64,000 nt of DNA from an uncultured Clostridium sp. (GTDB lineage Bacteria > Bacillota > Clostridia > TANB77 > CAG-508), in assembly GCA_900555615.1 (NCBI GenBank), contig USMB01000002.1:33230-97229 (forward strand), in the 5' to 3' direction. Of this stretch, positions 11,485 to 45,942 are shown piece after piece. Position 1 is the stretch's first letter, and the number at the start of each line of letters is the position of its first letter. The position numbers and the translations under genes were made by a program. The notes under the pieces were generated by a model. The model did not search any database. It worked only from the letters and a program-made list of their open reading frames with translations, and was not told where the DNA came from.

Positions 11485-11494
11485 GAGATTGAAT

Positions 11495-13192: not shown

Positions 13193-13206
13193 GTTTGGCT
13201 TGGTGA

Positions 13207-13294: not shown

Positions 13295-13317
13295 GTAAAT
13301 GTTCTGTTTGAACTTAT

Positions 13318-13393: not shown

Positions 13394-13602
13394 ATGATGT
13401 ATTTGTTTGAACTAGTAGAACAGATAGAGACAAAATTTTGGGCATGAAGATATTTCATTTCTTATGCAAACCACTATAGTATATAATATAAAATAAATCA
13501 ATATAAAAGAAACGAAATTTCGCAAAACTTTTGAATGAAGTTTTATGTATTTAACTTAACTTTCAGCTACTTTTGTAGTAAGATAGAAAACCAAGTGATT
13601 TT

Positions 13603-13636
13603 GGAAAGTTCAAAATAACTTTCCTTTTATTTTTTC
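13603..13636 (+). terminator. Rho-independent terminator ~200 nt downstream of the tRNA
   Basis: ggaaagtt/aactttcc 8-bp stem, 6-nt loop, then TTTTATTTTTTC. Confidence 0.55.
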
Positions 13637-13645
13637 TAGCAGTAT

Positions 13646-13685
13646 AAAAAAGCCTAGAACCATTCAAGATTCTAGACTTTTTATT
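13646..13685. terminator. Bidirectional terminator (murC 3' end)
   Basis: aaaaa-gcctagaa...ttctagac-ttttt: hairpin flanked by an A-run and a T-run. Confidence 0.5.
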
Positions 13686-13705
13686 ATTAAAACAAATATT
13701 TTAAA

Positions 13706-15085: not shown

Positions 15086-15334
15086 TATAAACACTCCTTA
15101 TTTTTGTTTTATTATTATATACTTATATAATGTAAAATTCAAGATTTTTGCTACAAAATCTTTTACAAAATATATTTAAATTATTTATTTGTAAAAAAAT
15201 GACGAAAAAAATAAAAATATAATAAAAAATTTGTAAAAAAAAGAGGGGAAAAAATTTTTGTTGGAGAATAATATAATAGTACATAAGATACAAATACATA
15301 TGTACAAAATTTAAAAACAGTGGAGGTGCACACA

Positions 15335-15607
15335 ATGCAAATAACAGACGTACGTTTAAGAAAAGTAAATTCAGAGAACAGAATGAAAGCTGTTGCTTCT
15401 GTAACATTCGATAATGAATTTGTTATCCATGATATCAAAGTTATCGAAAGTCAAAATGGATTATTCATTGCTATGCCAAGCAGAAAAACTCCAAACGGAG
15501 AATTCAAAGACATAGCTCATCCAATCAATGCTGAAACAAGAGAGAAGATTCAAAAAGCTATCTTAGAAGCTTATGAAGCTCCTGAAACAGAAGAATCAGC
15601 AGAATAA
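15335..15607 (+). CDS. spoVG: Septation protein SpoVG
   Basis: [12 protein letters not shown]...[22 protein letters not shown] is highly similar to SpoVG. GGAGGTG RBS 6 nt before the ATG at 15335. The track's GTG at 15320 overlaps that RBS. Confidence 0.9.
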
Positions 15608-15621
15608 TAAATTGATTTCAA

Positions 15622-15653
15622 ACCGATGCTAATTTATGGCATCGGATTTTTTT
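15622..15653 (+). terminator. Rho-independent terminator of spoVG
   Basis: ccgatgc/gcatcgg stem, then TTTTTTT. Confidence 0.7.
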
Positions 15654-15660
15654 GCGTTTT

Positions 15661-15725
15661 TGTCAAGAAAAAATCTGTCCCAAAATTGACAGGGTGTCAA
15701 GAAAAACACCGACACCAAATTGACA
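15661..15725. repeat. Palindromic element, copy E (type 2, partial; ttgacaGGGtgtcaa core plus right arm)
   Basis: ...caaaattgacagggtgtcaagaaaaacaccgacaccaaattgaca. Near-identical to copy C. Shares its right arm with copy D. Confidence 0.55.
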
Positions 15726-15732
15726 AAAAGAT

Positions 15733-15763
15733 GTCATAACCCGCTAATAGCCTGCATATACAT
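15733..15763 (+). promoter_or_regulatory. Possible sigma-E-like promoter for the spoVID-like gene
   Basis: GTCATAAC(15733-15740), 14-nt spacer, CATATACAT(15755-15763). Loosely resembles the sigma-E consensus TCATATT-14-CATACA-T. Inference only. Confidence 0.3.
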
Positions 15764-15795
15764 TAATAAAAAAAGAAGTAGAGGAGGTTATTTTC

Positions 15796-17376
15796 ATGGA
15801 AATAAATATGACAAAAGAGACTTTAAAAGTTAAAAAAGTTATCTGTGAAAAAAAAGAAATGATAAGCATACAAGGTGACATGATAGTGCCAGATTCAAAG
15901 CCTGATATATTAAGTACTGTAAACACGAGTGGAACCATATGCATATATAAAAAAGAGATGATGGATGGAAAAATAAGAATTGATGGAAATGTTCTTACAT
16001 ATATAATGTATCTTGCTGATACTAGCTCGAGAGAGAATATGAATGATAATATTAGGGGATTGAATACAGGATTGGATTTCTCTGAGACGATAAGTGTTCC
16101 AGATTTGCAGGAGGGAATGAACGCTGATTTGACGCCTACTATAAAGCTGATTGAATGTAAGATTTTGAATGGAAGAAAGATTTCTATAAAAGCTTCTGTT
16201 GAGGTGTCAATTAAGGTGTATTCAACAGATCCGATTGATATTATAACAGACATGAATGACAGCAATATTCAAGTGCTTAGCAAATCTATGAGGGTAAATT
16301 CTTTACTAGGTGATGGGATGACAAAGTCATCTATTAAAGAAAATATTTCGATTCCTACTACAGATAATCTTGCAGAGATTTTGGGCGAGCAAGTTTGCTT
16401 GGTTGATAAAGATATCAAAATTAGCTATAATAAAATTTTGGCTAAATCAGAGGTTGAAGTTAAACTAATTTATTTAACTGAGGATGGCAGAATTTGCACT
16501 ACTAGAAATCGTTTACCACTTGTAGGTTTTATCGATATGCCAAACATAAAGGAAGATAATATTTGCGAGCTTTCTTATTTAATTAAGAACATCATCATTA
16601 AGCCTAATTCAGTGGAGGAGCACACTGTATATATTGAGATGGAAGTTGAAATTTCTTGCATCGTGTATGAAGAAAAAGAAATTAAGAGCATTCAAGATAT
16701 GTACTGTCCTGGCGAAAAGATGGATTTTGACCAGACGATGGTTAATACGATTTCTAACAAACAATGCAGAAAAAGTACGTGTAGCATCAGAGAAAAGGTC
16801 AATGTGCCAGAGTTGCAAAATGTAGAACAGAGTAAGATTATCGATGTTGAGGTAAATCCAACTATCGAAAAACAAAATAAGATGAATGGCAAAATCAAAT
16901 TTGAGGGAGAGGTTGAACTTAACTTTATTTTTATGGAGGCAGCTACGAGCACAATCAATTCTAAAAAGGCAGTGGTTCCTTTTGAACAGACAGTTGATGG
17001 AATTGAAGGCCTAGATGATTGCAAAGTTGATACAAATATAGACATAGATTCACAAAGTTTTGAAAATCAAGCTGGAACAGTCAGTGTAAATATTGATTTG
17101 AGCTTCGAGGTTAGTGCTTATAGAAATTCAACAATTCCCGTAATTTCAAACATTTCTATGGAAGAAGATGACGAAATGGAAGATTACAGCGTTGTTATTT
17201 ATGTGGTTAAAGCAGGGGACACTTTGTGGAAAATTGCGAGAAGGTTCGGAAGCACGGTTGACGATATTGCTAGAGTGAATGGGATGGAAAATCCAAATAA
17301 ATTAAATGCCGGAGAAAAAATCTATATTCCTAAATTTGTACTTAAAAGAGCGAAAGAGCCAATTGTTCTGGCATAA
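15796..17376 (+). CDS. SpoVID/SipL-like sporulation protein (repeated DUF3794-type region plus C-terminal LysM)
   Basis: 526 aa. C-terminal LysM (YVVKAGDTLWKIARRFGSTVDDIARVNG...GEKIYIP). The N-terminal two thirds resembles the DUF3794 region of SpoVID/SipL. RBS GAGGAGG. Confidence 0.6.
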   Translation: MEINMTKETLKVKKVICEKKEMISIQGDMIVPDSKPDILSTVNTSGTICIYKKEMMDGKIRIDGNVLTYIMYLADTSSRENMNDNIRGLNTGLDFSETISVPDLQEGMNADLTPTIKLIECKILNGRKISIKASVEVSIKVYSTDPIDIITDMNDSNIQVLSKSMRVNSLLGDGMTKSSIKENISIPTTDNLAEILGEQVCLVDKDIKISYNKILAKSEVEVKLIYLTEDGRICTTRNRLPLVGFIDMPNIKEDNICELSYLIKNIIIKPNSVEEHTVYIEMEVEISCIVYEEKEIKSIQDMYCPGEKMDFDQTMVNTISNKQCRKSTCSIREKVNVPELQNVEQSKIIDVEVNPTIEKQNKMNGKIKFEGEVELNFIFMEAATSTINSKKAVVPFEQTVDGIEGLDDCKVDTNIDIDSQSFENQAGTVSVNIDLSFEVSAYRNSTIPVISNISMEEDDEMEDYSVVIYVVKAGDTLWKIARRFGSTVDDIARVNGMENPNKLNAGEKIYIPKFVLKRAKEPIVLA

Positions 17377-17392
17377 AATTTGAGTGGTGCGA

Positions 17393-18154
17393 ATGGATAA
17401 AATTGATAAGATTTATTCAAGAAGGAGATTTGTGTTAGGAAATTTTGGTGGTGAACGTGGCGGAAAATGCAGAAAGAGCAAAATTCCTTCTAATTATAAT
17501 AAGTATAAAATCTATAAATTTAGAAAAAGTGTTGTTTTGATTGCTGTGATAATAATTGCTTTTGTGGCATTAAGGACGGCATTTAGAAGGATAGATCCGA
17601 TGTTTGAAGCTTTGTGTGAGGAAAGGCTAAAATACAAGGCTACTATTATTACCAATCAGCAGTCGACAGTTGTTATGGAAAAGTATAAGTACGAAGAACT
17701 GTATACTGTTGAAAGAGATGAAACTGGAAATGTGACAGTGATAAGGGCAAATGTCCTTCCTATTAATAATATGATTTCTGATTTGACAGAAAGCATTCAA
17801 AATGAATTTGAAAAGATGGAGAAGAGTAAAATTTATATTCCTTTTGGGAGTTTGACCGGCTCATATTGGCTTGCAGAGTATGGACCTAGTATTCCAATAA
17901 GTTTTTCGATGTTGGGCACTCTTGATACTGAAATTAAGAGTGAGTTTGTGGCTCAAGGTATTAATCAGACTTTACATAGAGTTTGGGTGAATTTTAGTTG
18001 CGATATGAAGGTTGCTACTCCTTTGAAGATTTATAAAGAGAATGTGGTTAATCAGGTGGTTCTTGCTGAACATGTTATTGTTGGGAATATTCCTGATACT
18101 TATTATAATTTTGATGGTGTGGGACAGGATGAAGTTTTGAATGTGATAAAATAA
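17393..18154 (+). CDS. yunB: Sporulation protein YunB family
   Basis: N-terminal TM anchor. Conserved core IPFGSLTGS.L....GP.IPISF...G.....E....GINQTLHRVW. Starts 16 nt after the upstream gene, so probably co-transcribed. The track's GTG at 17384 is an alternative start. Confidence 0.6.
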   Translation: MDKIDKIYSRRRFVLGNFGGERGGKCRKSKIPSNYNKYKIYKFRKSVVLIAVIIIAFVALRTAFRRIDPMFEALCEERLKYKATIITNQQSTVVMEKYKYEELYTVERDETGNVTVIRANVLPINNMISDLTESIQNEFEKMEKSKIYIPFGSLTGSYWLAEYGPSIPISFSMLGTLDTEIKSEFVAQGINQTLHRVWVNFSCDMKVATPLKIYKENVVNQVVLAEHVIVGNIPDTYYNFDGVGQDEVLNVIK

Positions 18155-18230
18155 CAATTTTGTGTCAATTTTGGGTCGTTTTTTTTGACAGGGCTGTCAA
18201 AAAAAACGACCCAAAATTGACACAAAATTG
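18155..18230. repeat. Palindromic element, copy F (type 2, full; perfect 37+2+37 inverted repeat)
   Basis: caattttgtgtcaattttgggtcgttttttttgacag gg ctgtcaaaaaaaacgacccaaaattgacacaaaattg. The two arms are exact reverse complements. Begins 1 nt after the yunB stop. Confidence 0.8.
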
Positions 18231-18283
18231 TAATATAAATGTAATATAAAAATGTTGACAAAGATAAAAATAGATAGTAAAAT
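18229..18283 (+). promoter_or_regulatory. Sigma-A promoter preceded by a tandem TGTAATATAAA motif
   Basis: tgtaatataaatgtaatataaaaatg, then TTGACA(18255-18260), 17-nt spacer, TAAAAT(18278-18283). Confidence 0.5.
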
Positions 18284-18376
18284 AAAATTAATTGATGAAA
18301 AAAGATAAAAATAAAAAAGATGAGGCTAAAATAAAAAAAAGAAAATAAAAGAACAAGGAAAAGGGAGAGAAAAAAC

Positions 18377-19597
18377 ATGAAGGGAAAAAGTCAGAAAAAC
18401 AAAAGAAAATCAGAGTTGAATGCAATGTTTTTTATTATATTGATTGCAGCTGTATTATTTATTATTTCAACATATGCGTGGTTCTCAACTCAAAAGAACG
18501 TATCTATTACAAATTTAAAAGGTACTGTACAAGTTGCTGAAGGTTTGGAAATTTCACTTGATGCCAAGAGTTGGTCAAATTCTATTAAGTTAGGTGATGG
18601 AGATGGAGAAGTTAATATTATAGATAATGCTTATACAGGACATCATAATATTTCACCTTCTGAGATGTTGCCAGTTTCAACTTTAGCTATACCTGCAAAA
18701 GATTCAAAGGGTGATCCAATAGATAATTATTTAAAAATGCTTAGAGGTAAAATTAATGATTCAAAGAAATTAAGTGAGATTGGTTTTACTGCTGATGAAG
18801 GAAAACCGGAAACTAGTAGTCTACCATCTACAGATAAGACATTTCCTGGATTTTTCGCATTTGATATATTTTTAAAGAACTCTTCTAAACAAGAGAAAGA
18901 TGATGATATTCTACAATTAAATTATGATTCATCATTAGAAATTTTGGATGCCTCAAAAAAGAGTACAGGTTTACAAAATACAGCAAGAATTGCTTTTGCT
19001 AGATATACTGGAACAGCTGATGTTATGGCTGGACAAGATGAGGTATTAAAAGCTACTGTAGGAATTGGTGTTGGAGCTACAGAACCTAAAGTAGACAATG
19101 CTGCTATTTGGGAACCAAATGCTGGGGACCATGCTGAATATATGGTTGCAAACAATAACTTAGTAAAGTGGTCTGCATCAGATGCACTAAAATATGCACC
19201 TAAAAAATTAGATAATCCAAAAGATGGTGTTACACAAGGATTTGATGTTGATACTCAAATTCCTACATATGCATTGTCAGACAAAGCTGCTGGAAAAAAT
19301 ATAGATGATATATATAAATGGGATGGAACAGAATCTTTAGTAGCAAAACAAAATACTTTACAAACAAATAAAAAATCTGAAGATGATTATACAATAAAAG
19401 AGGGTGTACAAGATTTAGTAAGTACTTCTGATGGAACTACTAAATTCGGTATTGCACCAAATAAAATTTGTAGAATAAGAGTTTATTTATGGTTAGAAGG
19501 TCAAGATGTTGACTGTATTAACTATGCATCACATGGTGGAGGAGTTAAAGTTAATATAGGATTAGTTAAAGGTTCAACTGTTGGAGCTACAAACTAA
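18377..19597 (+). CDS. Secreted protein with SipW-cognate-like signal peptide; possible TasA/camelysin (M73)-like protein
   Basis: N-terminus K-rich...FFIILIAAVLFIISTYAWFST resembles the TasA-class signal peptide (…GGGTWAAFND). 406 aa, otherwise unrecognised. No sipW in the window. Confidence 0.4.
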   Translation: MKGKSQKNKRKSELNAMFFIILIAAVLFIISTYAWFSTQKNVSITNLKGTVQVAEGLEISLDAKSWSNSIKLGDGDGEVNIIDNAYTGHHNISPSEMLPVSTLAIPAKDSKGDPIDNYLKMLRGKINDSKKLSEIGFTADEGKPETSSLPSTDKTFPGFFAFDIFLKNSSKQEKDDDILQLNYDSSLEILDASKKSTGLQNTARIAFARYTGTADVMAGQDEVLKATVGIGVGATEPKVDNAAIWEPNAGDHAEYMVANNNLVKWSASDALKYAPKKLDNPKDGVTQGFDVDTQIPTYALSDKAAGKNIDDIYKWDGTESLVAKQNTLQTNKKSEDDYTIKEGVQDLVSTSDGTTKFGIAPNKICRIRVYLWLEGQDVDCINYASHGGGVKVNIGLVKGSTVGATN

Positions 19598-19645
19598 TTT
19601 TAACATTGCAAACCAATTATAAATCAATTACCAAAAAATATAAGG

Positions 19646-19670
19646 AGGATACCAAGAGGTGTCCTTTTTA
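19646..19670 (+). terminator. Rho-independent terminator
   Basis: aggatacc-aaga-ggtgtcct stem-loop (one G-U pair), then TTTTT. Confidence 0.65.
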
Positions 19671-19717
19671 TAATTGATGTCACAAAAATATTACAACAAT
19701 ATTACAAAATGCAAGTT

Positions 19718-19776
19718 AAATGTAATACAAATGTAACATAAAACATATTGAGATTGAATGGAAAATGATGTATAAT
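19718..19776 (+). promoter_or_regulatory. Sigma-A promoter preceded by the same tandem TGTAATAYAAA motif
   Basis: aaatgtaatacaaatgtaacataaaacat, then TTGAGA(19748-19753), 17-nt spacer, TATAAT(19771-19776). The inverted partner atattacaacaatattacaaaat lies at 19688-19710. Confidence 0.5.
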
Positions 19777-19824
19777 ATAATAAATAATTATCGATTATAA
19801 AAATACTAAAGACTGGAGGTTAAA

Positions 19825-21087
19825 ATGGCTGGAAATTTATTGAGAAAAACAAAAGAAATTGAAGATAATGTATATAAAATAGATTTTGGCGTTGAAGATG
19901 AAACTGAAATCGAAGCTGAAAATGAGAAAAAAACGTTGAAAGAAGAAGCAGAAAAGCTAGACACAGAAATTGCCAAAGAATTACAACCCAAAAAAGGAAA
20001 AATAATCAAAATAATAGATGATGATGACGAAATAGATGATATTTTTGGTAATGTAGGCGGATTAAATATTGAACAAACAAGCGAAGAGAAACAAAAAGAT
20101 GAAACTGAACAAGAAACTGTCGAAAAAACAAAAAAGAGAAAACTAGCTAGGATAGAAGATGGCATAAAAAGCAGTAAAGTAAGTAAAAAAACAAGTACAA
20201 AAGTAAAAAACAAAGTTCAAAAAATAGCTAAAACTCCTGCCAAACGAGGAAGAAAACCTAAATTAAAAGATATAGAGACAATTGCAGATAACCAAAGTGC
20301 AATAAAAATGCATACAGAAGGTAATTTAACTGAAATAATTTTACTTGAAAACAAATATAAAATAGAACTACAAAAAAACGAGTATAATATATATACAGAA
20401 GCAAACGAAACATCATACATAATAGTAAGAGAAACAATGCTAAGAATAGTTTCTGGAGGAGTTTACATATTGATTGAAAAACAAGGAGAAGACTATGCGA
20501 TAACAACTAACCAGGACTTTAAAATTAATTATGTTATAGATAATTTGGAACGAAAAAATAATGCAGTAAATTTTAAGCTTACAAATTTAACAGAAATTGT
20601 AGCAAATGAAGATGGAATAAATTTTGAAATAGATGAAGAAAAAGTTATAGAAAATAGCTTAGAAGACAACAAAACATTAGTAATTTCTGAAGAAGATGGA
20701 AAAGTTTATTTGCCATACACTAAAGAAGATATAAAAAAAGATATTTCGGAAAATAAAGGTGCGAAAATCTCAGAAGTTATTGACCAAAACTATGTATTGC
20801 CATTAGATAAATATAAAAATTCTATGAGAGCACGTTTTAGAGAAGGATATAATTTAATGTATTATAGAGAAAAAAAATCTAAACGAAGTGCTATAATGCT
20901 AGGAATTGAATTAATGTTTGAGTCAAATTTACATCCTGCAATAATATCTGCGTGCAAAACATTAGAAGAATTAGATATTTATTTAGATTGCCTTGAAGAT
21001 AATGAGTTAGAGAAATTTTCTTGCTTTAGAATTATTTATAAAAGTCTTCCAACTTTACATAAAAATAATAAGGCACAAGAGTTTTAA
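19825..21087 (+). CDS. Hypothetical charged protein with AT-hook-like motif
   Basis: 420 aa. N-terminal half is E/K-rich with KRGRKPK (AT-hook-like GRP core). C-terminal half of unknown family. RBS GGAGG. Confidence 0.5.
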   Translation: MAGNLLRKTKEIEDNVYKIDFGVEDETEIEAENEKKTLKEEAEKLDTEIAKELQPKKGKIIKIIDDDDEIDDIFGNVGGLNIEQTSEEKQKDETEQETVEKTKKRKLARIEDGIKSSKVSKKTSTKVKNKVQKIAKTPAKRGRKPKLKDIETIADNQSAIKMHTEGNLTEIILLENKYKIELQKNEYNIYTEANETSYIIVRETMLRIVSGGVYILIEKQGEDYAITTNQDFKINYVIDNLERKNNAVNFKLTNLTEIVANEDGINFEIDEEKVIENSLEDNKTLVISEEDGKVYLPYTKEDIKKDISENKGAKISEVIDQNYVLPLDKYKNSMRARFREGYNLMYYREKKSKRSAIMLGIELMFESNLHPAIISACKTLEELDIYLDCLEDNELEKFSCFRIIYKSLPTLHKNNKAQEF

Positions 21088-21227
21088 AATTGTAAATTGA
21101 AATACAAAAATAGTGGGCTGATTCTAAATAAACAAATTGTAAAATAATGTAAAAATATATTAAAATTTTAAAAGCCTGAAACCTTAGAAATAAACGGGTT
21201 TGAAGTAAAAATAAAAATAAAAGAAAA

Positions 21228-21254
21228 AAGTGCTAAAAATGGCACTTTTTTTTT
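21228..21254 (+). terminator. Rho-independent terminator (part of the giant-gene 1 upstream cassette)
   Basis: aagtgcta-aaaa-tggcactt stem-loop, then nine T's. Confidence 0.7.
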
Positions 21255-21352: not shown

Positions 21353-24300
21353 ATGTTAAAAAATAAAATAATTGTTAAGAAAATTAGAAATATATTAATA
21401 TTATTTATGGCAATCTTGATAATGATTGGAGCATACCATAATGTTCGAAGGTCAAGAGCAGAAAATGTAATAGAAATTTCGATGGAGGTAGCAGATAAAA
21501 ACAACAGCTTGGAAAAACAAACAGTAACGATTGATGCTACAGAAACTAAAAATGGAGTTTATTTAGCAGAGTTACCAACATCTGTAAACGGAAATAGGGT
21601 AACTAAATATTATACATCAGATGGCGAAGAACTTGAAATAGATCCAGCTAGTGTAGAAAAAATAACATTAGAGTTAACAGAAGATGAATTAGCAAATAAA
21701 AAAATTAGCTTAGGAACAGAGTATGACAAAAAGACTGCTATTATTGATGATGTTGAAACAACTCTTTACAACAAAGAATTTATAAATGAAGACGGAGATG
21801 TTATTGTAACAGGATATATGCCTCTAGATATTCAATTAGATTTTACTGAAATTGATGCTAATGCATTAAAAGATATAAGACTTCCTAGTGATGATTTAAC
21901 AGTAAAAAAATCTTTTGGAATCTCTATACAAGAAATGATAGATGTATCCAAGACAACAGACAAAGCCGAAACAGATGATACAACTAAAACTGATGGAAAG
22001 AATCAAGTGAATGATACAACTGGATTAGCTGAAAATGCTCAAACAAATGAAACAGAAAAACAATTAATAGAATATGATTCAACAAAATATGGTGAAGATA
22101 TAACAATAAAAATAAAACAAGCTGATAGCAAAGAAGAAACTGTAATCTATAGTTTTTCTGATGGCACACCAGTAACAGAAGTTGTTTATACAAACACAGA
22201 TGGAATATTGAGTTTCTTAAAGAATGATAATGATAAATTCATATATACAGTAAAAAAACAAGAGACAACAGATAATGTAGCAAGTGAAGAACAAGTTGTT
22301 GATGATACACAAGATAGTGATGCAGTTCAAATAGATGAAGATACAACAACTTCTGATGATAGTACAATAGTAAATAGGCCTAACAATGGACCTAAAAAAG
22401 CTCAAGCAAGAGCAGGAAGTAAAGTTGCGACATTAGACACAATTTGGAGTCATGGAGAATCACTTGGAAACGGACTAAATAATGCACAAAATAGTAATTT
22501 CTTTGGATTAGTTCCAAGAGGAAAAATATCTAGTATAACATTACTTACATCTGATGGAAAAGATTCAAGTGGAAATAAAATAAATTTTGATGTTAGTGGT
22601 GCACAAAGTCAATCAATAGCGACTGGTGGATCAGTTATTCTTTACTGTATACCTAATGGTAGCACATATAAAGCTTATATGCTTCCGGGTTCTGATGTAG
22701 GAACTATAAAATTTAATTCAGATTCAAAATTTATATTTTCATATTTAGGATATGAATCTTCATGTACTGAAACAGAAGTTGTAAAAGGATTTTTTGATTC
22801 TAGCAGTATAGTTGATACAAGTGGAATTACACAGGCAAGAGCAATGTTTGCACATATTGGAAGAAATGGAAGTATGAGAACATTAACTATTGGACCTAAA
22901 TTTACTACAACTTCAATAAAAGATACACAAGATATGTTTTATGAATGTGGATTTTCAAATATGACAACCTTGAAATTTAGTTCTAATTTCAAACTGGAAA
23001 ATGCAACAAATCTTTTATCAATGTTTTACAGATGTGGATACAACAAATTAACAAGCTTAGATTTATCAAATATGACAACTGCTAATGCAACAAGTATGGA
23101 ACATATGTTTAATATGTGTGGAAATCAAAGTTTGACAAGTTTGAAAATAGGATTTAATACAAGCAAAGTAACAAATATGCATGCTATGTTTGCTAACTGC
23201 GGAACAGAAAAATTGACGACATTCAGCTTAGGAAACAATTTTAATACAAGCAATGTAACAGACATGGGATATATGTTTGAAAAATTTGGTGGACCATTAA
23301 CAGAACTAAAATTGGGAAGCAATTTTTCAACAAGTAAAGTAACTAATATGCAAGGAATGTTCTCTCAAACAGGAACAAAATCAATGAAAAAAATCCAACT
23401 TGGAGATAAATTTACATCAATAGCTTCTGGAAATTATTCAGACTTCTTAAATAATACAGGAGCAAGTGGATGTAAAATATATGTACCAGGAGCAATATAT
23501 TCAAATAAACATGCAGTAAAATTAAGTACTAGTTCATCAACAACAATATCATATACAAAAGGATATATAGTAGGACCTGACAATGCAGCTCCAACATGGG
23601 CAGACAATGTAAACGGTGCAAAATATTCAGCAACTGATCATACATATACAATGAATTTAGTAGGTTCTGATGCAGTGGCATTAGATGCAGAAGCTTCAAC
23701 ATTAACTAAAGGCTCAACTATAAAAGTAAAAATAGGAAATTCAGAAACATCTAATTATACGCTTGGTGCAACGAGTTTAAGTTCAGATGAAAATACTAAA
23801 ACATTTCCATTAACTATAAACAATTACACAGGTGGGGCAATTACAATTACAATATCAGCAGGAACACTTATAGACTTAAGAGAAAATAAAAGTGCTGCCA
23901 AAACTTATAATATTGCATCTGTTGATGGAACTGCACCAAAATGGAGCTCAAGTGTAAGTGGAGGAACATATTCAGGGACTGATAAAACATATACATTAAG
24001 TTTAGTAGGTACTGATGAAACTTCATTAGATGATAGCGAGTCTAAACTAACAAGAGGTTCAAATATAACTGTAAAAGTAAATAATACAAGTACGTCAAAT
24101 TATACACTTGGAAATACAACATTAAGCTCAGATGGAAGAACTAAAACTTTCCCATTGACAATAAGCAGTTATTCAGGAGGAACAATTGTAATTACAATAA
24201 CAAAAGGGGCATTAGTAGATAGAAATGGAAATACAGAAGCAAGTGGTGCAACATATACAATAAGACCTAATGTAGATACAACAGCACCAAAATGGAGTAG

Positions 24301-27300
24301 TAATGTAACTAATGGAAGTTATTCATCAACTGGACATACATATAGCTTGACTATAACAGGAACAGATGAAACTCAATTACAATCTAATAAGCTAAGTACT
24401 TTTAATACAACGGTTCAGGTTAATGGAAGTAAAGTAACCAATTTAGACTTTGCACAACCAGTACTTAGCTCTGATAAAAAAACAATAACAATTAAATTAA
24501 CAATTAAAAATTACACCGGTGGAAAAATTACAATAAAAATTGCATCAGGAGCGTTGATTGATGCAACAGGAAATGCAGATACTAAAGGAGCAACATATGA
24601 ATTTACTCCTAATACAGATGTAACAGCACCAAAATGGAATAGTTCAGTAAATAATGCAACATATTCATCATCTGCTAATACATATACATTTGAAGTTGTG
24701 GGAACAGATGAAACAAGTTTAAAAACAGGATTGACATTAAATGCATCTAATGCACCAATAACAGTAAATGGTTCAACAGCAAGTGTAACATATGGTTCGG
24801 GACAATATTCAAACAGTAATAAAACAGTAACATTTAAAATAACAGTAAGAAATTATTCTGGTGGAAAAATAGTAATGAATATTAAAGCAGGTGCATTGCA
24901 AGATAATGGTAATCCAGTAAATTCGAGCGTTGCACAAAATTACACGATGGATCCTCAGACAGATTTTACAGCACCAGTATGGAATGGGTCTATAAATAAT
25001 GGAAAACTTTCTGGTAGTACATATACATTAAATTTAATAGGAACAGATGAAACAAAATTACAACAAACAACATTAAGCACATCAAATGTTTCTGTAACAG
25101 TAGGAGGAAAGTCAGCATCATTTTCTTTCTCAAATAGAGGACAAGGACAATTGTCAAATAACAACAAAACAATAACATTTGGAATGACGATTTCAAATTT
25201 CACAGGTGGAAATGTAACAATAACAATTAATGCAGGAGCATTAAAAGATACAGAAGGAAATTTGAGTGTAAAACAAACATATTCATTTTCAGTAGATGGA
25301 ACTGCACCAAAATGGAATTCAAGTGTTACTGGAGGTACATATTCAAGTACTGCACATACTTATACTGTGAAATTGATAGGAACTGATGAAACAAAATTAA
25401 ATGACTCAATGTCAGCATTAAGTTCATCAAATGTAACAATAAAAATAAATGGAACACCAATAAGTACTTTCTCATTTAAATCATCAATTAGCTCTGACTA
25501 TAAAACCAAAACATTTACATTAACAATTACAAATTATACAGGAGGAAAAATAACAATTCAAATAGACGAAGGAGCATTAGTTGATACAGCAGGAAATAAA
25601 GAAGCAAATGGAGCAAAATATGAATTTACCCCAAATATAGATTCTGTGGTACCAGCATGGAAGACTAGTATAAGTGGTGGAACGTATTCATCAACTAACC
25701 ACACATATTCATTTAGTTTGGTAGGTACTGATGAAACAGCATTAAATAATTCAGCATCTGTATTAAATTATGATAATATGCTAGTAACAGTAAATGGAAC
25801 AAAAGTTACACGATCTAATTTAGTATTTGGCTCAACCTCAATAAGCTCAGATAATAAAACAAAAACATTTCCAATAACCATAAATGGATTCACAGGAGGA
25901 GCTGTAGTAATAACAATAAATTCTGGTGCATTATCAGATATGACTGGAAATAAGAGTAGCGAAATTAGCTATAAATTTACTATTGATGGTACTTTACCAG
26001 TATGGAGTAATGCTATAAATGGTGGAACATATGATGAAAATGCTAAAACATATACATTTAAATTGGTTGGATCAGATGAGACTGGAATCCAACAAACTAC
26101 ATTAAGCTCATCAAATGTAACAGTAACAATGGGCGGAAAAACAGCAAATGTTACATTTTCTAATGGCGGTAAAGGAACTATAAATGATAAAACAATAACA
26201 TTTGAGTTAACAATTAATAGCTTTGTAGGTGGACAGATAAATATTTCAATTAGTGCAGGAGCATTAAAAGATACTTCAAATAACTTAAGTGTGGCAAAAA
26301 CATATTCATTTAGCAAAGACGTAACGCCACCAACATGGGATTCTAAAATAACAAGTACATCATATAAAAACAGTATATATACAGTTAATGTTACAGGTAC
26401 TGATGAAACAGCATTAAATAATTCAAGTTCAACATTAAGCTCATCAAATGTAACAGTAACAGTAAATGGAACTGCAGTAAGTGCTTCAAATTTAACATTT
26501 AGTGGTCAATTAGCATCAGATTCAAAATCAAAAGCATTTGCGATTGGAATAAAGAGCTTTACAGGTGGAGAAATAAAAATTGTAATAAATCCAGGGGCCT
26601 TGACAGATACATCAGGAAATAAAGAAAAGACTGGAGCAACATATAATTTAACTGCTGATATAACACCACCTGCTTGGGGAAATGCAACAGGAAAATATAA
26701 TCCAGATGACCAATCTTATACAATAACAGTAACTGGTACAGATGATATTGAATTAAATACTAGTGCATCTGCACTTACAACATCTAATTCAACATTGACA
26801 GTTGGCGGAACTGCAGTGACACCAACAATAACTAAAACAGCTTCTACATCAAAAAGTGTGACATATGAAATAAAAATTTCAAAGCATACAGGTGGAGCAA
26901 TTTCATTTAAAATTAATGCAGGAGCATTAAAAGATGCTCAAAACAATACTAGTGCTGAAAAAACATATACATTTGCAGCAGTAGATGCAGTAAAACCAAC
27001 ATGGGCAAGTAACATTTCTGGAGGTACATATTCAAATGGTACATACTCATTTAGTGTAGTGGGTTCTGATGAAACAAAGTTGGATACTTCAAAATCAGTA
27101 CTAAGTTCATCAAATTTTTCAGTAACCACTAGTGGAAATGCAGTAAGCTCAAGTGATATAACTTTTGGATCACCAACACTAAGTTCAGATGGAAAAACAA
27201 AAACATTTCCTATAACAATAAAAAACTTTAAAGGTGGACAAGTAAATATTACAATTGCTGAAAAAGCTTTGTATGATACAACTGGTAACTGGAGTGTTTC

Positions 27301-30300
27301 AAAAACATATTCATTCTATAAAGATATAACACCACCAGTATGGGATGATAGCATACAAAATCCATTATATAATCATTCAACAAAAGGATATTATTTTGAA
27401 TTAGTAGGAACAGATGAAACAAAATTAAATACAAGTAGTTCAACATTGACAACATCAAATGTAAAAATAACAGTTGGAGGAACAAATACAACTAATTTTA
27501 CACTTGGAACAGCAACAACAAGTTCTGATTCTAAAACAAAAACATTTCCTATAACACTTAATAGCTATACAGGTGGAGAAATTATAATAACAGTATCTGC
27601 TGGAGCTTTAAAAGATACAGCAGGAAATTCAAGTGCTGTAAAAGAATACAAAATTACACCAGATATTACAAAACCAGTTTGGTCATATCAAAATTTAACA
27701 TATGACCCAGACTCAATGACATATTCAGTTGAACTAGTCGGAACTGATGAAACAGCGTTAAATACAAATGTTTCTACATTGATATCAACAGGTAGCTCAA
27801 AAAATCTTTTAGTAACTTGTGGTGGTACATCAGTTACGCCAACATTGGAAAAGACTTCAACAACTTCAACAAAGATAATTTATAAATTAACTATTAATGA
27901 TTATCCAGGTGGAGCAGTGGCTATAACAATATCAGAGGGAGCATTAATAGATACATCATCAAATAGAAGTGACCATAAAGTTATAAATCTTCCTGAAAAG
28001 GATAGAACAAAACCAACTTTAAAAGTACAAAACAATAATTATTCTGATGATTCAGGACAATATACATTTGAAGTTGTAGCAACAGATGAGACTGCGATAG
28101 ACACAACAAGATCTAATTTGGCACCAAATGGAAGCTCAAAAAATATTACAGTAAAATGTGGAAATACAACAATTGTTCCATCAATCACTTCAAGAAATAC
28201 TTCTGATGGAAAATCAATTATATATACTGTTACAATTTCTGAGTATCCAGGTGGAACAGTATCAGTTGCAATCGATGCAGGTGCAATTTACGATACAACA
28301 GGAAACAAGAGTAATTCTGCTTCATTTACATTACCAGCAGCAGATGTTCAAAAACCACAATGGGCAGACAGTGCAGAATTCTCATATGATGAAAATAATA
28401 GTACAGTTAGTATAACATTGACTGGTACAGATGATGTTGGATTAAATGATTCAAAATCAGTTTTAAATTTATCAACCAATTTAGTAATTTATAATAATGG
28501 TGCAGTTGTATCTTCTGAAAATATTAAGCTTGGAACTCCAACAATTAGCCAAGATAAGTTGACTAAGAAGTTCCCAATTACACTTAATAACTTTGCAGGA
28601 GGAACAACATCTATTGCAATTAGCAAAGGGGCATTGGTTGATAATAGTGGAAAAACAAGTGATGCTAAGACATATAATTTTACTGATATGATAAAACCAA
28701 AATGGTACATGGATGGAAATGGCTCATATAATACAAAATCAAAAGAATATACTATAACACTAGATGCAAGAGATGATACAGAAATTAAAACAGTAAATTT
28801 GACAACTTCAACAATGACAGTTACTGTTGGTGGAACAGCAGTAACACCTACAATAACACAAGTGACTGATGGAATTCAGGAAAAGAGATATACTATTACA
28901 ATTCCTAACTATACAGGAGGAACGATAAATATAACATTAAATGCAGGAACTATAGTAGATACTGCTGGAAATGCAAGTATTCAAACACCATTTTCTGTAA
29001 CACCAGATGTTACAGCTCCATTATGGAAAGCTGGAAGTGCAGGCTATGTAAATGCAACAACAAGTGATGATGTTACAATAGAATTGCTTGGTACTGATAC
29101 TAAAATGCTTGCCACATCAAATTTAACAAAACAAGATTTAATTGTTAAATATGGTGATACAATTATTGATTATGATAAAATTAATTTGAGTGAAGTAACC
29201 TATACAAATGACGGAAAAGGTGGAGTTAAATATGTATTAACTCTTCAGGAATATACAGGTGAGGTGGTATCTGTATTCTTACCAGCAGGTACATTAACAG
29301 ATCAAGCAGGAAATACAAGTGTTGATACTACACTTGCAATAGAGTCAATTTTACCACCAGAGGATACAGATGTGCCAACAGTAAGTGGTACTCAAGTAAA
29401 GGTAGATAATCTTTCTCAGGTAATTTATATAACTTTTGATATTACAGATATGAGTTTTGATTATACTCATCATTTGACAGCAGAAGATTTTGAAGTTACA
29501 AAGACTTATAAAGTAAGAAATGGATATTGGGGAACTAAAGAAGAAACAGTAACAATTACTCCAACAATAGAAATTGTAAGAGAAACAAGATTAACAGGAA
29601 AAAAAGGTTATAGATATAAGATAAAACTAACTAATGTTGATATAACAACAACACCGTTATGGGGAATTGGAGGAACACAAAGTAACCCAGCTACAATTAA
29701 AGTATATTTAAATAAAGATGCAATGTTAGATAGATTGAGTAAAGGAAATGAGAAAACACTATTAATGAACCAGCAAGTTACATTTGAATCTTCAACAACA
29801 GATGCAGCAATTTCTTTAAGAAGTGCAATAGTAAATAATACCGATGATGATAAAAACTTGACTATACAATTAACTGTAAACAAGAGCAATTCGTGGTGGG
29901 GAACATTCTTCTTTATACCAGGAATTTATGGTTCAACTGCAACAAACAAAAAACTATCTACAGATAATATATATGATTTAAGATTTGATGGTGTATCTGT
30001 AGGTGATAGTAGTGCAATTGATATTACAGTTGAAGAATTAACAAGTAGTAGTACTACTACAGGAGGAGGGTTCTGGTGGAACCAAGGAACTACAACTACT
30101 ACAGCAGTATATAGAATAATTTTATCAAACCTTGAAGAAGCATTAAGACAAAACTTAAAGAGCTACAAAGAATGGAGTGGTTGTGTTGAGTTAGACATAG
30201 GACCAAGCTCAGATACAATATATACTGTAAGAAATGAGGATGAAGATTTAGAAGGTTTTGAATATAAAAATACACAAGATATACTATTCGTAGATGTTAT

Positions 30301-33300
30301 AAAACCAGAATTAGAAGTAAAAGGTGTAACAATAAATGATGAAGAATCAGATAGTGCCACAGTAAATTTACAAGCAACAGATAAATATTTTAGCACATAT
30401 TATACAACAAACCAAACCGCATCATTTGATAAAACCAAAATATATTTAACAGCTGATGGAGTAAAGGCAACAGAAGAGGAGACAGGTGTTAAATTACAAT
30501 GGGAAAAAGCAAAAGATGTAACAGAAACAAGAAGTGGTGAGAAAAAGGTTATAGGAATTACTCAAAGTGTGACAATAACTGGTATGAAAGATAATTTAGA
30601 TAAAAAATTAAAATTAGTAATAGAAGAAGGTGCATGTCTAGATAATTCAGGTAACCCAAATGAAAGAAAAGAAATATCACTATTTAGTAGATTGATGTCT
30701 GCTTCAACAGAAACAGCAGCAACAAGTACATTCTTAAATAACCCATATGCAATTCAAAGACAAAATGTACAAAGTGTAGAATTTAGAAGTTCTACAACAG
30801 GATTGATTTCAAATTGTGCATGGGATGTTTCTGAAAACCAAGATGGTTCAATAATGGCATGGTATGACGGAACAGGTCCATACAGAGTATATATTGCAGG
30901 TGATGGATTGATATATGCAAATCCAGACTCATCATATTTATTCTCATATGTAGGATATGCAACAAATTGTACAGATACAACAGTTGTAAAGAACCTTAAC
31001 TTATTAAATACAAAATTTGCAACTAAAATGGATGCAATGTTTAATTATACAGGTTATAGGTCAATGACTGGATTAAGTTTAGGAGATAAATTTGATACAA
31101 GCAATGTTACCTCAATGAATAGAATGTTTGACAATTGTGGATATACAAGAATGGGTTCATTGAATTTAGGTACAGCTTTTGATACAACAAAAGTAACTTC
31201 AATGAGTCTGATGTTTAGAAATTGTGGATATACAGCAATGACATCAATGGAACTAGGAACAAAATTTAATACTTCAAAAGTAGAGAATATGACTTCAATG
31301 TTCTATTATACTGGATATACAGCAATGACAACATTAAAATTAGGAAACTACTTCTATACAAAATCTGCAACAAATATGTCTCAAATGTTTAACTATACAG
31401 GTGCTAGTGCGATGACATCATTAGATTTAGGACCAGCATTTACAAAAATAGCAGATACAAATACAAATTTTGCAACAGGTTGTGGTAAAAATGGTTCAGT
31501 AACTATATATGTAGGTTCATCAATTTACTCAACAAAAAATGCATTTAAATTAAGTGCAGATGTAACAACAACAATATCATATGCAAGAGGAACAATAAAT
31601 CCAAAATATAAACCAGATTGGACAAAAGTTTCAACAACATTAAATACAACAGATAAAAATATAACAGTAAAATTACAAGGAAATGTAAATACTGCAAATT
31701 ATACAGGTGATGCTTTAAAATCAGTAATAAATAGATTAGCAATGGGAACAGGTGACAGCTCAAAGATAACAGTAAAAATAGATGGAACAGTTGCAAATAA
31801 TTTAGTAAAAACAGTTCAGACATCTGTAAAAGGACCAGCAAATACGGTTACTGCAGAAATAATAATTTCAAGTTTTGCAGAAACTACAGTCCAAAGTGGA
31901 AAAACATATTTGGAATGGGCAGGAAATATTGCAATACAATTAGCTCAAGGAACATTGACAGATGCATATGGAAACCCAAATTTGGCTCAATTAGATGGAA
32001 GTGCTGTAGAAATAAAAGATGCAACAATAGATAAAAATACAGATGGAAAAATGTTCGCAGATTTTATAAAACCAAAATTAATGTATGAACAATCAAGTGT
32101 AGTAGTAGATAAAACTGGAAAAACAGTTACAATAGTATTTTCAATAACAGATAAATACTATGCTAGTGAAAGCTTAGATGTTTCAAAATTGAGCATAAGA
32201 GTAGATGGTACTGATGTATCAGAAATTCCATCAATAAAGAAAACATTAACAAAATCCACTTCAAGTACAGGTGTAAAATATACATTGGTATTATCAGAAT
32301 TTGAACAGGATTCAATTGCAAGTGGAAAGAGATACTTAGATTACAGTGGTTCTATTACAGTAACAGTGCCAGCAGGAGCTGTGTTAGATAAATCTGGAAA
32401 TGGAAATGTTACAGAAGGATTAGGAATTGGACCACAAAATACAATTGTAAAGGATAATGCATCAAATTTAGCAGAAATAGACTTGGTAAGACCAAGTTGG
32501 CAATTACAACCAAATAAAGGTGTTACATTAGATTTTGCAAGTAAAACAGTAACAATTCCACTAGAAGTAACAGATAAGTATTTTTCAACAAGTACATTAA
32601 CAAATAATATAAAACTTTTAGTAAATGGAGCTGAATCGACATCAGGAGGAACAATTTCAATTCAGTCAGGACCAACAAATATTACTGAAACAAGAGGTGG
32701 AAATACAGTATTAATAGGACATTCTTATACTGTAAAAATAACTAATATTTCAGTAGATTCAGGTCAATTAGGTGTTAGAATTTTAGAAGGAGCAGCATCA
32801 GATACTTCTGGAAATACTAGCTCACAAAAAGACATATTATTATTAAATCGTTTGAAAGAAACAAATACTGAGACAGCAGCGACAAGTGGATTCTTAGGAA
32901 GTGCAAGTAATACTAATGCAACAATAAAAGCGATACAAAGACAAAATATAAATAAGGTTGTATTCGAATCAGGTATTTCAAGTGCTGTTTATAATCACAC
33001 AACAAAAACAATTTCAGATGCTACAAGAGCATGGGATGTATCAAAAGCAGGTGATCAATCAATTGTAGCATGGTTTGTAGATAGCGAAAAATCAAACGGA
33101 ACTTACGTAATTCACATAGGTAGTGAAGGTGGAATTCTTGCAAATACAGATTCAAGTTATTTGTTTGCAAATATAGGAAGTTCTGCAAATTGTAAGTCAA
33201 TAGTAGCAATTGCAAACTTAAGTTTACTAGATGTAAGTACTGTAACAAATATGAATTACATGTTTACAAATACAGGTAAACAAGCAATGACAGAATTAGA

Positions 33301-36300
33301 CTTAGGAACAAACTTTAGTACAAGTAGTGTAACTACAATGGTTGGAATGTTCCAAGGTGCCGGTTATAATGCAATGACGACATTAACCCTTGGAAATCTA
33401 TTTGTAACTACGAAGGTTACGGATATGAACAATATGTTTAATGAAACAGGTTATAAAGCATTAAAGAGTTTGAATTTGAGCACATTTAATACGGCAAGTG
33501 TAACAAATATGCAAAGAATGTTTAGAGCAACAGGACATGATTCAATGACAACATTAACATTAGGAAGTAACTTTAATACCGCAAAAGTAACTAATATGCT
33601 TGGAATGTTTGCAAATTGTGGATATGGTAGTCTAACAGCATTAAACTTAGGTGGAGCATTTGATACAGGAAATGTAACAGATATGAGTTATATGTTCACA
33701 GGTGCAGGACATGATTCAATGACAGGCTTAAATTTAGGAAGTTTATTTAAAACAAGTAAAGTAACAAATATGAGTTATATGTTCCAAAATACAGGTGCAG
33801 GAAAAATGACAACATTGACCTTAGGAAGCAACTTTAATACAAGTGCAGTAACTAACATGAGTTATATGTTTAATGGAACAGGTAGTTCATCAATGCAAAG
33901 CTTAGTTTTAGGTGGATATTTCTATACAAGTAAAGTTACAAATATGACTAGTATGTTTGAAGCTTGTGGTCAAGGAAGTATTAAGACGATAGATTTAGGA
34001 CCAGCATTTACAAATGTGTCTAGTACTAATACAAATATGTTAAAAACATTGAATAATACAAATATTTATACAGGTACAGCAATTTATTCAAATGAGAATG
34101 CAGTAAGATTAAACTTGAACTCAAGTACAACAGTAAGTTTTGAAAGAGGAAAAATTATAGCAAAATATCAACCAGAATGGCAAAAATCTACTACAACTCC
34201 AGATACTGCAAATACAGCAATAACAGTAGTATTAAGAGGAATAGTAAATGCAACAAATTATGCTGGATATAATAAAAACATAACAAATAAATTTGCAAAT
34301 GGAACAACAACACAAATAACAGTAGCAATAGATGGAGAATCAACTCCAAATAGCAGAATTATAAAAACAATAAGTGGTGCTAGTTCAACAGCAGCAGAGA
34401 GTGTTCAATGTAATGTAAGATTAACAGGATTTAATGAAGGATACATATCATCAAAAGGATATAAAGAGTGGAGTGGTAATGTAGCATTAAACATACCGCA
34501 AGGAACCTTAACAGATGCATATGGAAATCCAAATTTAGCTCAAGAAATTAAAGAGGATGCAGTAGAAAAAAATACTGCAGGAGACTTATTCTTGGATTCT
34601 ATAAAACCAGAAATAATATATGAATACTCAGAAACAACAATAAATCATGACAGTCAAACAGTAACTGTTGGATTTAGAGTTACAGATAAATATTTTGCAA
34701 ATACATTGTTAACAGTAGAGCAATTGGCTAGCCAAATAACAGTAAAAGTTGATAGTGAAGCAGTAAATGTTGAAAAAGAAGTAAGAGAAATAAAAGCATT
34801 GAATGAACCAGTAAATGGTCAAAATAGAACAGTTGGAAAGAAATATGAATTGGTAATTAGTAAATTAGACCAAGGTGATGGTATAAGATACAGTGGACCA
34901 ATGCAAATTGTATTTCCAACAGGAATAGTAAAAGATGCATCAAATAATACCAATACAGGAAAAACGATTTCAATTGGTGTGGATGATCCAGTAAATGATG
35001 CAGAACATAAATCAGAGGTTATAGTCGATGTAGTAAAACCAGTATGGTCAGTTGAAAACTTAAAAATTACTCAAGTAAATGGAAAAGCACAAGCAACAAT
35101 GGATTTAATAGGAACAGACAAATACTTAAACAAAACAAATAGTAAAAGCTTAACTCCAAATGAGATAAAAGTTTTTGTAGATGGAGTAGATATTACAAGT
35201 ATAGCAACAGGACTTAGCAAGAGTTTAGCAGGACCTATAGATATAGATAATGGAATAAAATATACACTAACAATTACTAACTTAGAGGAATCTTATGATG
35301 CATTTATTGCAGCAAGAAATGCTAATAAGAGAGTATATAGAGAGTACAGTGGAGATGTAACATTAGAGGTACCTGAAGGAAAATTAGTTGATAACTCAGG
35401 AAATAAAAGTTCAAAACTTTCAGTAAAGGTTGGAATAGTTGATACATTAAAGCCAGAAATAGTAAAAGTTTCATCAACAGTAAATCCAACGGCAAAAACA
35501 GAGACAATAATATTTGATGTTACAGATAAATATTTTGGAACAATATTAGATGAGCAAACACTTCTTTCAAAACTACATGTATTTGTAGATGAAGAAGCAG
35601 CAGATAGTATAACAAAACAAATAACAAATGTTGAAACACTAACAGATACAGTAGATGGAATATCTAAAACAGTTGGAAAGAGATATACATTAGTATTATC
35701 AAACTTTGAAAAAGAAGGACTACAAAGTGGATATGAATTTAAAGGAATAAGTGGAACTGTAAAGGTTACAGTAGATGCAGAAATTGCAACAGACTCTAAC
35801 GGAAATACAAGTAATTCTGCAACATTAGCAGGAGACTTTACAGACTTTATTGAACCAAGTGTGGTTTATAGATTTTCAAAACCAGCAAGTGGAGCAAATT
35901 CTGTAACAATAACATTTGACGTAACAGATAAATATTATAAAAGCGGAGATTTGACATTAGCAGATTTAGCATTAAAAATGCAAAATGGTAAAAATTTAAG
36001 CAATTATATTGATATGAAAACAATATCTGGTGCACAAATTCAATTTGGAACACCTTCAAATGTTACTTGCCCAACAGCAATGAATAAAACCGTAAATGGA
36101 ACAGTTCAAAAAGGATTGACAAATCAAATAATAGGAAGACGTTATACAATAACGATTTCAAATTTAGAGCAAGCACAGATTAAAGATGGAGACCAATACT
36201 TAGAATATAGTGGTAATGTACAAATTGGAGTAGCAAAAGGTAAAGTAAAAGATCAAGGAAATAATACAAATCTTGCACAAACTATTACATTTGGTATAAA

Positions 36301-45919: not shown

Positions 45920-45942
45920 TTTATATAACTAATGCTGAGAGG

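Follow-up and report, generated by a model that had tools for sequence, protein, structure and literature searches.

A strain-variable array of 17 Ig-like domains, probably a spacer rod, in a giant protein of an uncultured gut Clostridium

We describe here a tandem array of 17 immunoglobulin (Ig)-like units in a giant protein encoded by a 64,000-nucleotide (nt) stretch of DNA from an uncultured Clostridium sp. (the window: assembly GCA_900555615.1, contig USMB01000002.1, positions 33,230 to 97,229 of the forward strand). The array is probably a passive spacer rod of variable length within a putatively exported protein of the fibrillar-adhesin-like kind. Its units follow one another head to tail in a single reading frame, from amino acid (aa) 742 to 2669 (nt 23576-29359, forward strand), inside the open reading frame (ORF) 21353-45919. 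Comparison with related loci shows that the length of the array varies in natural populations, by gain and loss of whole units at short identities lying in conserved motifs.

The array and its unit

The units were cut five residues upstream of each P-x-W motif. This motif recurs from aa 747 to 2556 at a spacing of 107-119 residues, and in one unit, number 14, it lacks the Trp and reads KPTLK instead. The units measure 107-119 aa (321-357 nt, about 113 aa on average), with a period of about 340 nt. All on the forward strand, unit 1 lies at 23576-23920 (aa 742-856), unit 2 at 23921-24271 (aa 857-973), unit 3 at 24272-24613, unit 4 at 24614-24958, unit 5 at 24959-25291, unit 6 at 25292-25636, unit 7 at 25637-25981, unit 8 at 25982-26314 and unit 9 at 26315-26653. 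They are followed by unit 10 at 26654-26980, unit 11 at 26981-27319, unit 12 at 27320-27658, unit 13 at 27659-27997, unit 14 at 27998-28339, unit 15 at 28340-28681, unit 16 at 28682-29002 and unit 17 at 29003-29359.

Amino acid identity between pairs of units ranges from 22 to 60% (mean 39%), and neighbouring units are on average 42% identical (range 22-55%). Units 13-17 are the most divergent of the array, above all unit 17, which shares 22-33% of its residues with the others. A profile built from the same 17 units that it was used to score gave each of them 103-143 bits (E-values of 1e-34 to 1e-46). Moreover, residue autocorrelation peaks at lags 113-115 and 341, with values of 0.14-0.17 against a background of 0.085 +/- 0.012, so that the periodicity is far above chance. 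The peak at lag 341 prompted us to consider a super-repeat of three units, which was rejected since the mean identity at lag 3 (0.44) barely exceeds that at lag 1 (0.42); neighbours resemble each other no more than units farther apart do. The computed consensus is xDxTxPxW..GxYS..TYTxxLVGTDETxL..SSDxKTKTFxxTIxxYTGGxIxIxIxAGALxDTxGN, and six residues are invariant across the 17 units (D2, P6, D32, L43, G84 and D98).

The picture is different for the DNA. Identity between units is only 43-69% (mean 56%), the longest exact word shared by two of them has 31 nt, and Tandem Repeats Finder, run over 20-64 kb, reported no period of about 340 nt but only 87-nt periods belonging to DUF285/PARCEL repeats. 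The program is blind to the longer period because the identity of the unit DNA is so low. The array is a repeat at the protein level. A first-pass annotation of this DNA, made by a model from the letters and their ORFs, had placed about 17 consecutive repeats at 23590-29350, very close to the limits found here, and had written out a motif that the computed consensus reproduces. Its period of about 300 nt proved too short, although the periodicity itself is borne out by profile and autocorrelation, and the 40-60% identity that it gave between copies is valid for the first 12 units or so only.

When unit 6 was modelled singly by AlphaFold2, with the other 16 units as its alignment, the result was an all-beta structure of eight strands and no helix, with a predicted local distance difference test (pLDDT) score of 96.6 and a predicted template modelling (pTM) score of 0.88. 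The best Foldseek matches to this model in the PDB were the Ig-like domains of the Geobacillus S-layer protein SbsC (4uj6, 2ra1 and 4uic), with query-normalised template modelling (TM) scores of 0.58-0.60, 23-26% identity, E-values of 1.4e-3 to 2e-3 and probability 1.00. Next in rank, also at probability 1.00, were titin/obscurin Ig and Ig C1-set domains, and the viral fold library BFVD gave generic Ig-like matches only. According to these models the unit is an Ig-like beta-sandwich, the Ig/Big-like fold that the first-pass annotation had expected structure prediction to return. Units 6 and 7 modelled together, on an alignment of 16 adjacent pairs, gave two separate sandwiches of identical strand pattern (pLDDT 94.6), joined by a linker block with a pLDDT of 84. 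Foldseek matched this two-unit model to the two-domain chains of IgG Fc at a low TM score (0.3), which is uninformative about the geometry between domains.

Some of the conserved positions invite comment. Stabilisation by an isopeptide bond of the CnaB type is unlikely, as there is no invariant Lys among the units. Binding of calcium by D2, D32, D98 and N102 would be an attractive candidate function, by analogy to cadherin-type linkers.

Neither Pfam nor NCBIfam contains the sequence family of the unit, which would need a model of its own. A scan of the array at E <= 1 gave no credible match to any Pfam or NCBIfam model. FixG_C had one sub-threshold match (E 0.016; 15.8 bits against a cut-off of 25.6), and FAD_binding_6 accumulated 27.8 bits over the first half of the array (cut-off 21.1) with no lone stretch passing, a match that we judged spurious. 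The 17 units scanned one by one at E <= 10 were matched by LapA in three cases and by Big_5 in two (best E-value 0.018 for both), and once each by Big_12, Big_13, Big_3_3, TIG and CARDB. None of these matches attains a Pfam gathering threshold, the best E-value being 0.018. The units share with Big_5 (PF13205), LapA (PF20579), Big_12 and Big_13 a beta-sandwich of about 100-115 aa, and these scattered sub-threshold matches. Big_5 domains begin with D-x-T-x-P and end near D-x-x-GN, as the units of the array do.

A profile search of PDB sequences returned nothing meaningful, with chance-level matches to BTF3 and Fab chains and none to SbsC. Among 1.84 billion representative proteins searched exhaustively with HMMER, 275 matched at E <= 1e-3, 15 of them at E <= 1e-30, and a word-indexed protein search with the unit profile retrieved two fragments only. 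The strong full-length profile matches are solely giant relatives that bear leucine-rich repeat (LRR) motifs of the DUF285 type. Weaker matches in other phyla (Proteobacteria, Actinobacteria) cover the C-terminal third of the unit only (...GAxxDxxGN), and ten of the more distant matches, when scanned, had no Pfam family over the matched stretch. The exact giant protein is absent from a collection of 15 billion proteins, and a literature search on this protein class in gut Clostridia found nothing specific.

Unit number and allele types among strains

In every related locus the units were counted and each was assigned to the best-matching unit of the window. The related genome records are metagenome-assembled genomes labelled 'uncultured Clostridia bacterium' from Hadza gut samples, and among the related metagenome contigs several bear the label of a human gut metagenome assembly. 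The array was recovered colinearly in more than 15 independent assemblies. Loci whose flanks are 96.5-99% identical to the window at the nucleotide level were taken as the same species. Eleven complete arrays of this kind fall into only three length classes, with 17 units (the window, L006, L009, L010 and L017), 18 units (L007, L008, L011, L016 and L018) and 10 units (L005). Other lineages have 16 (L002) or 13 units (L015, P0004 and P0005). Comparison of repeat number between strains had been proposed as a check in the first-pass annotation, and the number does differ, both within the species and between related lineages.

In the 18-unit form, seen in five independent assemblies, unit 5 occurs twice in tandem through a duplication of exactly 333 nt. 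The duplicated segment corresponds to window positions 24968-25318 less an 18-nt overlap, which forms the junction and lies at the motif coding for TAPxW. In L007 the two copies of unit 5 are identical at 317 of 333 positions. The 10-unit form, whose contig L005 comes from ERR13898732, matches the L006 allele at 98.5-99.9% identity and lacks exactly 2,388 nt of it, a loss of seven units in frame. Its junction is a 14-nt identity, GGTACTGATGAAAC, encoding the conserved GTDET of units 2 and 9. In the window this 14-mer occurs in units 2, 7 and 9, and the copies at 24008-24021 (unit 2) and 26396-26409 (unit 9) mark the left and right junctions of the deletion. Logan contigs are built from 31-mers, in which case a 14-nt identity should not create a false join. 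The earlier suggestion that divergent tandem repeats of this kind still permit recombination and length variation is thus well founded, with the junctions lying in short identities of conserved motifs.

One related locus, L001 (ENA ERZ21549425, contig s7154.ctg007930l, positions 5500-20546), has the homologous giant gene as at least 12 short ORFs in shifting frames, with at least 12 array units spread over six of them. This fragmentation reflects either uncorrected indel errors of sequencing or assembly or a decaying pseudogene.

The two halves of the array have different histories. In a neighbour-joining tree of the units of five proteins, units 10-17 form eight position-specific clades, each with one unit per protein; therefore these distal eight, beginning with unit 10, are old and have kept their number and order. 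Units 1-9 group by lineage, as seen for units 1-5 of L002, for units 1/2 and 3/6/7 of the window and for units 2-4 of P0005. The N-proximal units 1-9 are the zone where units arise and disappear. The ratio of nonsynonymous to synonymous substitution rates (dN/dS) is 0.33-0.40 along the whole array, which shows that its ORF is under purifying selection.

A second kind of variation affects the distal half. Identity between the window and L006 is 97-100% up to about 27,013-27,046, within unit 11, drops there to 60-80%, and returns to 97-100% at about 34,000-34,300. This dimorphic block of about 7 kb (27030-34100, forward strand, as delimited by nucleotide identity to the alternative alleles) comprises units 11-17, the region after the array, the second LRR module, three divergent Ig-like domains and most of the third LRR module. 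Type A alleles are those of the window, L007 and L008, which are at least 98.6% identical to one another overall from unit 5 onward. Type B is the commoner class (L003, L005, L006, L009-L014 and L016-L018), and ten of its members (L005, L006, L009-L011, L013, L014 and L016-L018) are 98-100% identical to one another over the whole block; L003 and L012 are partial contigs, typed as B by their unit identities. Both types share one species background, and since arrays of 17 and of 18 units each occur with either type, recombination must have occurred within the array. Synonymous divergence (dS) between A and B is 0.82 in units 11-17 and 0.025 in units 1-10. The unit tree groups the window with P0004 and with L002, a locus of another species, and places the type-B units outside this group, which points to an old polymorphism or to import from a more distant lineage. 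These comparisons show that strains exchange units 11-17 together with the rest of a two-allele block.

The type-B alleles also differ from type A in their reading frame. In all ten loci that reach the site, the giant ORF ends at a TAA (...GQWGWRNNI*) about 560 nt past the array (L006:15440-15620, and the same site in L005, L009-L011, L013, L014 and L016-L018; window equivalent about 29,900). The +1 frame overlaps this end by about 22 codons and then stays open for at least 3,200 codons, to the end of the locus, in nine of the ten, and for 1,105 codons in the shorter L005. Read across the +1 shift, the type-B protein is continuous with its homologues (...GDGGTTYNY...), and in type-A alleles, including the window, the frame is continuous at this site. 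Either the gene is split in two here, a conserved arrangement in which the second part has no signal peptide, or a programmed +1 frameshift takes place.

A spacer rod and the alternatives

The host ORF (21353-45919, forward strand; 8,188 aa) starts with an ATG 8 nt downstream of a Shine-Dalgarno GGAGG. Read from the sequence, its N-terminal leader, MLKNKIIVKKIRNILILFMAILIMIGAYHNVRRSRAENV (21353-21466, forward strand), combines a basic n-region with a hydrophobic core and may be cleaved at SRA|EN; we infer that it serves as a signal peptide or as a signal anchor. No other membrane-targeting element was found in the giant protein, and the leader recurs in the giant relatives P0003, P0006, P0016, P0039 and P0071 (MLKNKIIVKKIRNI...). 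Within the first 370 aa (21353-22460), the roughly 330 aa after the leader are acidic, Thr-rich and of low complexity, as in TTDKAETDDTTKTDGKNQVNDTTG and DDTQDSDAVQIDEDTTTSDDS, and match no family; this region could be a wall-spanning segment if the protein is anchored at its N-terminus.

Pfam scans of the whole length of the protein except aa 3217-3682 (about 470 of the 8,188 residues) found a single family, DUF285 (PF03382), with 52-172 bits in five scanned segments against a cut-off of 25; the NCBIfam model of the PARCEL repeat, TIGR02167, stayed below threshold (25.6 against 30). There are six DUF285 LRR modules, at about aa 494-665, 3225-3341, 3966-4197, 5237-5382, 6745-6919 and 7954-8128, and the protein ends about 60 residues past the last motif of the sixth. 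Module 1 (22832-23347, forward strand) lies about 230 nt (about 80 aa) upstream of the array. The unit profile also finds weak copies (E-values of 1e-4 to 1e-16) between all LRR modules and throughout the downstream giant gene 2, grouped in runs of roughly eight in both genes. Of a domain type present all along both giant genes, the array is thus the single run that is both long and homogeneous. The first-pass annotation had called it unique to gene 1, which is true of the array subfamily but not of its divergent relatives, and had rightly seen that gene 2 has no equivalent run; the best score there is 35 bits, against at least 103 for the array units.

In the arrangement that we propose, 17 Ig-like sandwiches of about 113 aa, connected by short Asp/Pro linkers (D-x-T-x-P-x-W), would form a beads-on-a-string rod, the longest uninterrupted spacer in the giant protein. 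An Ig-like domain is typically 4-4.5 nm long, and at this value the rod would reach about 70 nm and be fairly stiff. On one side of it lie the N-terminal leader and LRR module 1, on the other the remaining 5,500 aa and their five LRR modules, and its length would fix how far apart these are held. If the leader is a membrane attachment, the array would hold these C-terminal 5,500 aa off the cell, and the number of units would set their reach. Since both the loss of seven units and the gain of one are tolerated, the proximal units appear to be interchangeable length elements. Also in keeping with a spacer, adjacent units fit the rule, cited by Whelan et al. (2021, PMC8201768), that neighbouring domains in large multidomain proteins mostly share less than 50% identity, except for pairs 1/2, 2/3 and 6/7 (51-55%).

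Fibrillar adhesins and fibrillar-adhesin-like proteins are extracellular and consist of a stalk, an adhesive region that is usually terminal and, usually, a surface anchor such as an LPxTG motif or an SLH, LysM, choline-binding or GW domain, and nearly half of the fibrillar-adhesin-like proteins detected have no known anchor (Monzon et al. 2021, PMC8286594). The giant protein resembles them as a long, single-chain, putatively exported protein in which a tandem Ig-like array stands beside putative binding modules, and its 17 contiguous Ig-like units are what is expected of such a stalk. It differs from them in that no known anchor is present, in that the DUF285/PARCEL blocks are spread over both sides of the array instead of gathered at one terminus, and in that the stalk domain is below threshold for every Pfam family. 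On the whole the reading of the first-pass annotation, a stalk like those of long fibrillar adhesins, holds up; of its details the tandem, stalk-like region of varying length was confirmed, but not a binding region that is distal only.

Several observations weigh against a passive rod. Regular expressions for LP.TG, NP.TG and LP.T[AN] have no match in gene 1, and no SLH, LysM, choline-binding or other Pfam anchor domain was found in the scanned parts of the protein, so that surface attachment and orientation are unproven. With LRR modules on both sides of the array, a simple succession of anchor, stalk and distal adhesin misfits, and we know of no ligand or binding activity for DUF285/PARCEL modules. 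The rigidity of the rod is conjectural, and the pTM of the two-domain model is only 0.63. The 10-unit allele comes from a single contig. Lastly, the positional orthology of units 10-17 suggests that these units are not interchangeable and maybe have position-specific roles.

A bolder reading, which we offer tentatively and consider rather unlikely, concerns the distal half. Units 11-17 and the next 5 kb or so would be an ancient two-allele cassette, kept within a single gut species by balancing selection or by repeated import, with type B making a two-protein fibril or using programmed +1 frameshifting. Together with the changes in length, it would constitute a surface-variation system acting on both reach and antigenic type.

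It is also conceivable that the Ig-like units are themselves the working surface, in multivalent binding of a ligand (a glycan or a host protein) or in self-association between cells, a role that has been proposed for certain repeat regions of biofilm proteins, with unit number tuning avidity instead of reach. Units 10-17 keep their positional identities across lineages as if individual units had individual partners, the deep divergence of units 11-17 between the two allele types is typical of regions that face a variable partner, and the array is rich in Thr, Ser and Asn. However, dN/dS is alike in the conserved and the dimorphic parts, with no positive selection at this resolution, and a natural allele has lost seven units in frame. 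Moreover, the conserved Asp, Pro and Trp of the linkers and the Gly and Leu positions of the core look structural, and the Pfam and NCBIfam scans matched no known binding-domain family. We consider such a role for the units unlikely.

Less likely again is that the array acts as a switch like those of Periscope Proteins, in which frequent intragenic recombination would change stalk length rapidly, in a quasi-phase-variable manner. In Periscope Proteins such as Sgo_0707 SHIRT, SasG and Rib the repeats are long and highly identical in their DNA, and adjacent SHIRT domains are 82-100% identical in aa (Whelan et al. 2021, PMC8201768). The array shares with these proteins a rod of tandem domains whose copy number depends on the strain and alters the predicted length, with otherwise near-identical strains differing in unit number, and the four combinations of unit number and allele type show recombination within it. 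On the other hand, its repeats do not have the DNA identity that defines Periscope Proteins, and the substrate for frequent exchange is missing. The length changes are few, are confined to the N-proximal half and took place at motif identities of 14-18 nt, and with three classes in 11 arrays and a constant number of units 10-17 the events look rare.

It is very improbable that the array contributes to a lattice of the S-layer or sheath type. The top three Foldseek matches do come from SbsC, which likewise has Ig-like domains in a row and provides the nearest solved structure (TM about 0.6, 23-26% identity across about 115 columns). Their E-values are marginal, though, and the scores of generic Ig domains come close. 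There is no homology to SbsC detectable by hidden Markov models in the profile search of PDB sequences, and Pfam scans found no SLH or other region binding cell-wall polymers. The protein context is also wholly different, and no S-layer protomer that we know of resembles a chain of 8,188 aa bearing six LRR modules. Finally, an assembly artefact or functionless, decaying repeat DNA can be set aside with near certainty, as an open frame of 24.6 kb is not possible by chance in DNA of 30% G+C, and the colinear recovery of the array in independent assemblies, a dN/dS below 1 and a confident fold prediction all speak against it. A length-variable spacer rod is therefore the reading that we favour.

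Neighbourhood and significance

The 87-nt (29-aa) tandem periods, with 68-80% identity, are the DUF285/PARCEL LRR repeats. They lie at 31088-31282, 33635-33870, 41710-41931, 45310-45576, 49676-50141, 53735-54077 and 58031-58723, and are the sole DNA-level tandem repeats of both giant genes. Recombination could act on them too, from one module to another or from one gene to the other. The abstract of Roske et al. (2010, PMC2996958) describes PARCELs as repeats of about 25 residues in membrane-targeted ORFs of unknown function from diverse microbes. Like those proteins, the giant protein carries DUF285/PARCEL repeats above the Pfam threshold; unlike them, it has its six modules embedded in a mostly Ig-like chain, and an Ig-like array is not mentioned in that abstract.

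Gene 2 (46355-64000, forward strand), which starts 436 nt after gene 1, is cut off by the edge of the window, and the part inside codes for more than 5,880 aa. This part begins with a leader of its own (MLKKRKNVRKIIVLLMSIISIISLG..., also found in the relatives P0043, P0023 and P0060) and has at least three LRR modules of the DUF285 type along with numerous divergent Ig-like domains, with no homogeneous array. A terminator-like hairpin lies upstream of the giant gene at 21224-21251; the scan called it on the minus strand, but both of its flanks are T/A runs. Another, on the forward strand at 45936-45980, begins 17 nt past the stop codon of the giant gene. The neighbouring genes encode RlmD, SerS, MurC, YunB and a LysM sporulation-type protein, and these genes together with a G+C content of 30% indicate a spore-forming Firmicute.

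Directly upstream of the giant gene, on the forward strand, are two genes for conserved hypothetical proteins of 406 aa (18377-19597) and 420 aa (19825-21087), neither of which has a Pfam or NCBIfam match. Their position is kept in L005 and L006, and the corresponding DNA of L002 is 73-78% identical. The 406-aa protein has an N-terminal hydrophobic segment followed by YAWFS, which resembles a SipW-dependent signal of the TasA/camelysin type. This protein may have a role in assembling or anchoring the giant proteins. In L006 a Y1 transposase of the IS200/IS605 type (PF01797; L006:2982-3848), absent from the window, is inserted between yunB and the gene for the 406-aa protein, and L007 has an insertion of like size (L007:2712-3780) at the same junction (window about 18,195-18,223), which shows mobile-element activity adjoining the locus.

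Tandem Ig-like stalks of giant bacterial surface proteins are well known, and the kind of structure described here is not new in itself; what is new is the domain family of which it is made. As this family has no Pfam or NCBIfam model, most of the 8,188-aa protein and of its neighbour escapes standard annotation. Further interest lies in the documented length polymorphism and in the dimorphic distal half. Repeats as divergent as these, with about 56% nucleotide identity, still gain and lose domains in human-gut populations, which widens the idea of length variation beyond the repeats of Periscope Proteins. The contrast between a plastic N-proximal half and a conserved but swapped distal half offers a clue to the way in which an uncultured gut commensal diversifies its outermost surface. 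If the two-allele cassette is real, it would, along with the changes in length, amount to surface variation in a prevalent uncultured lineage of human-gut Clostridia.

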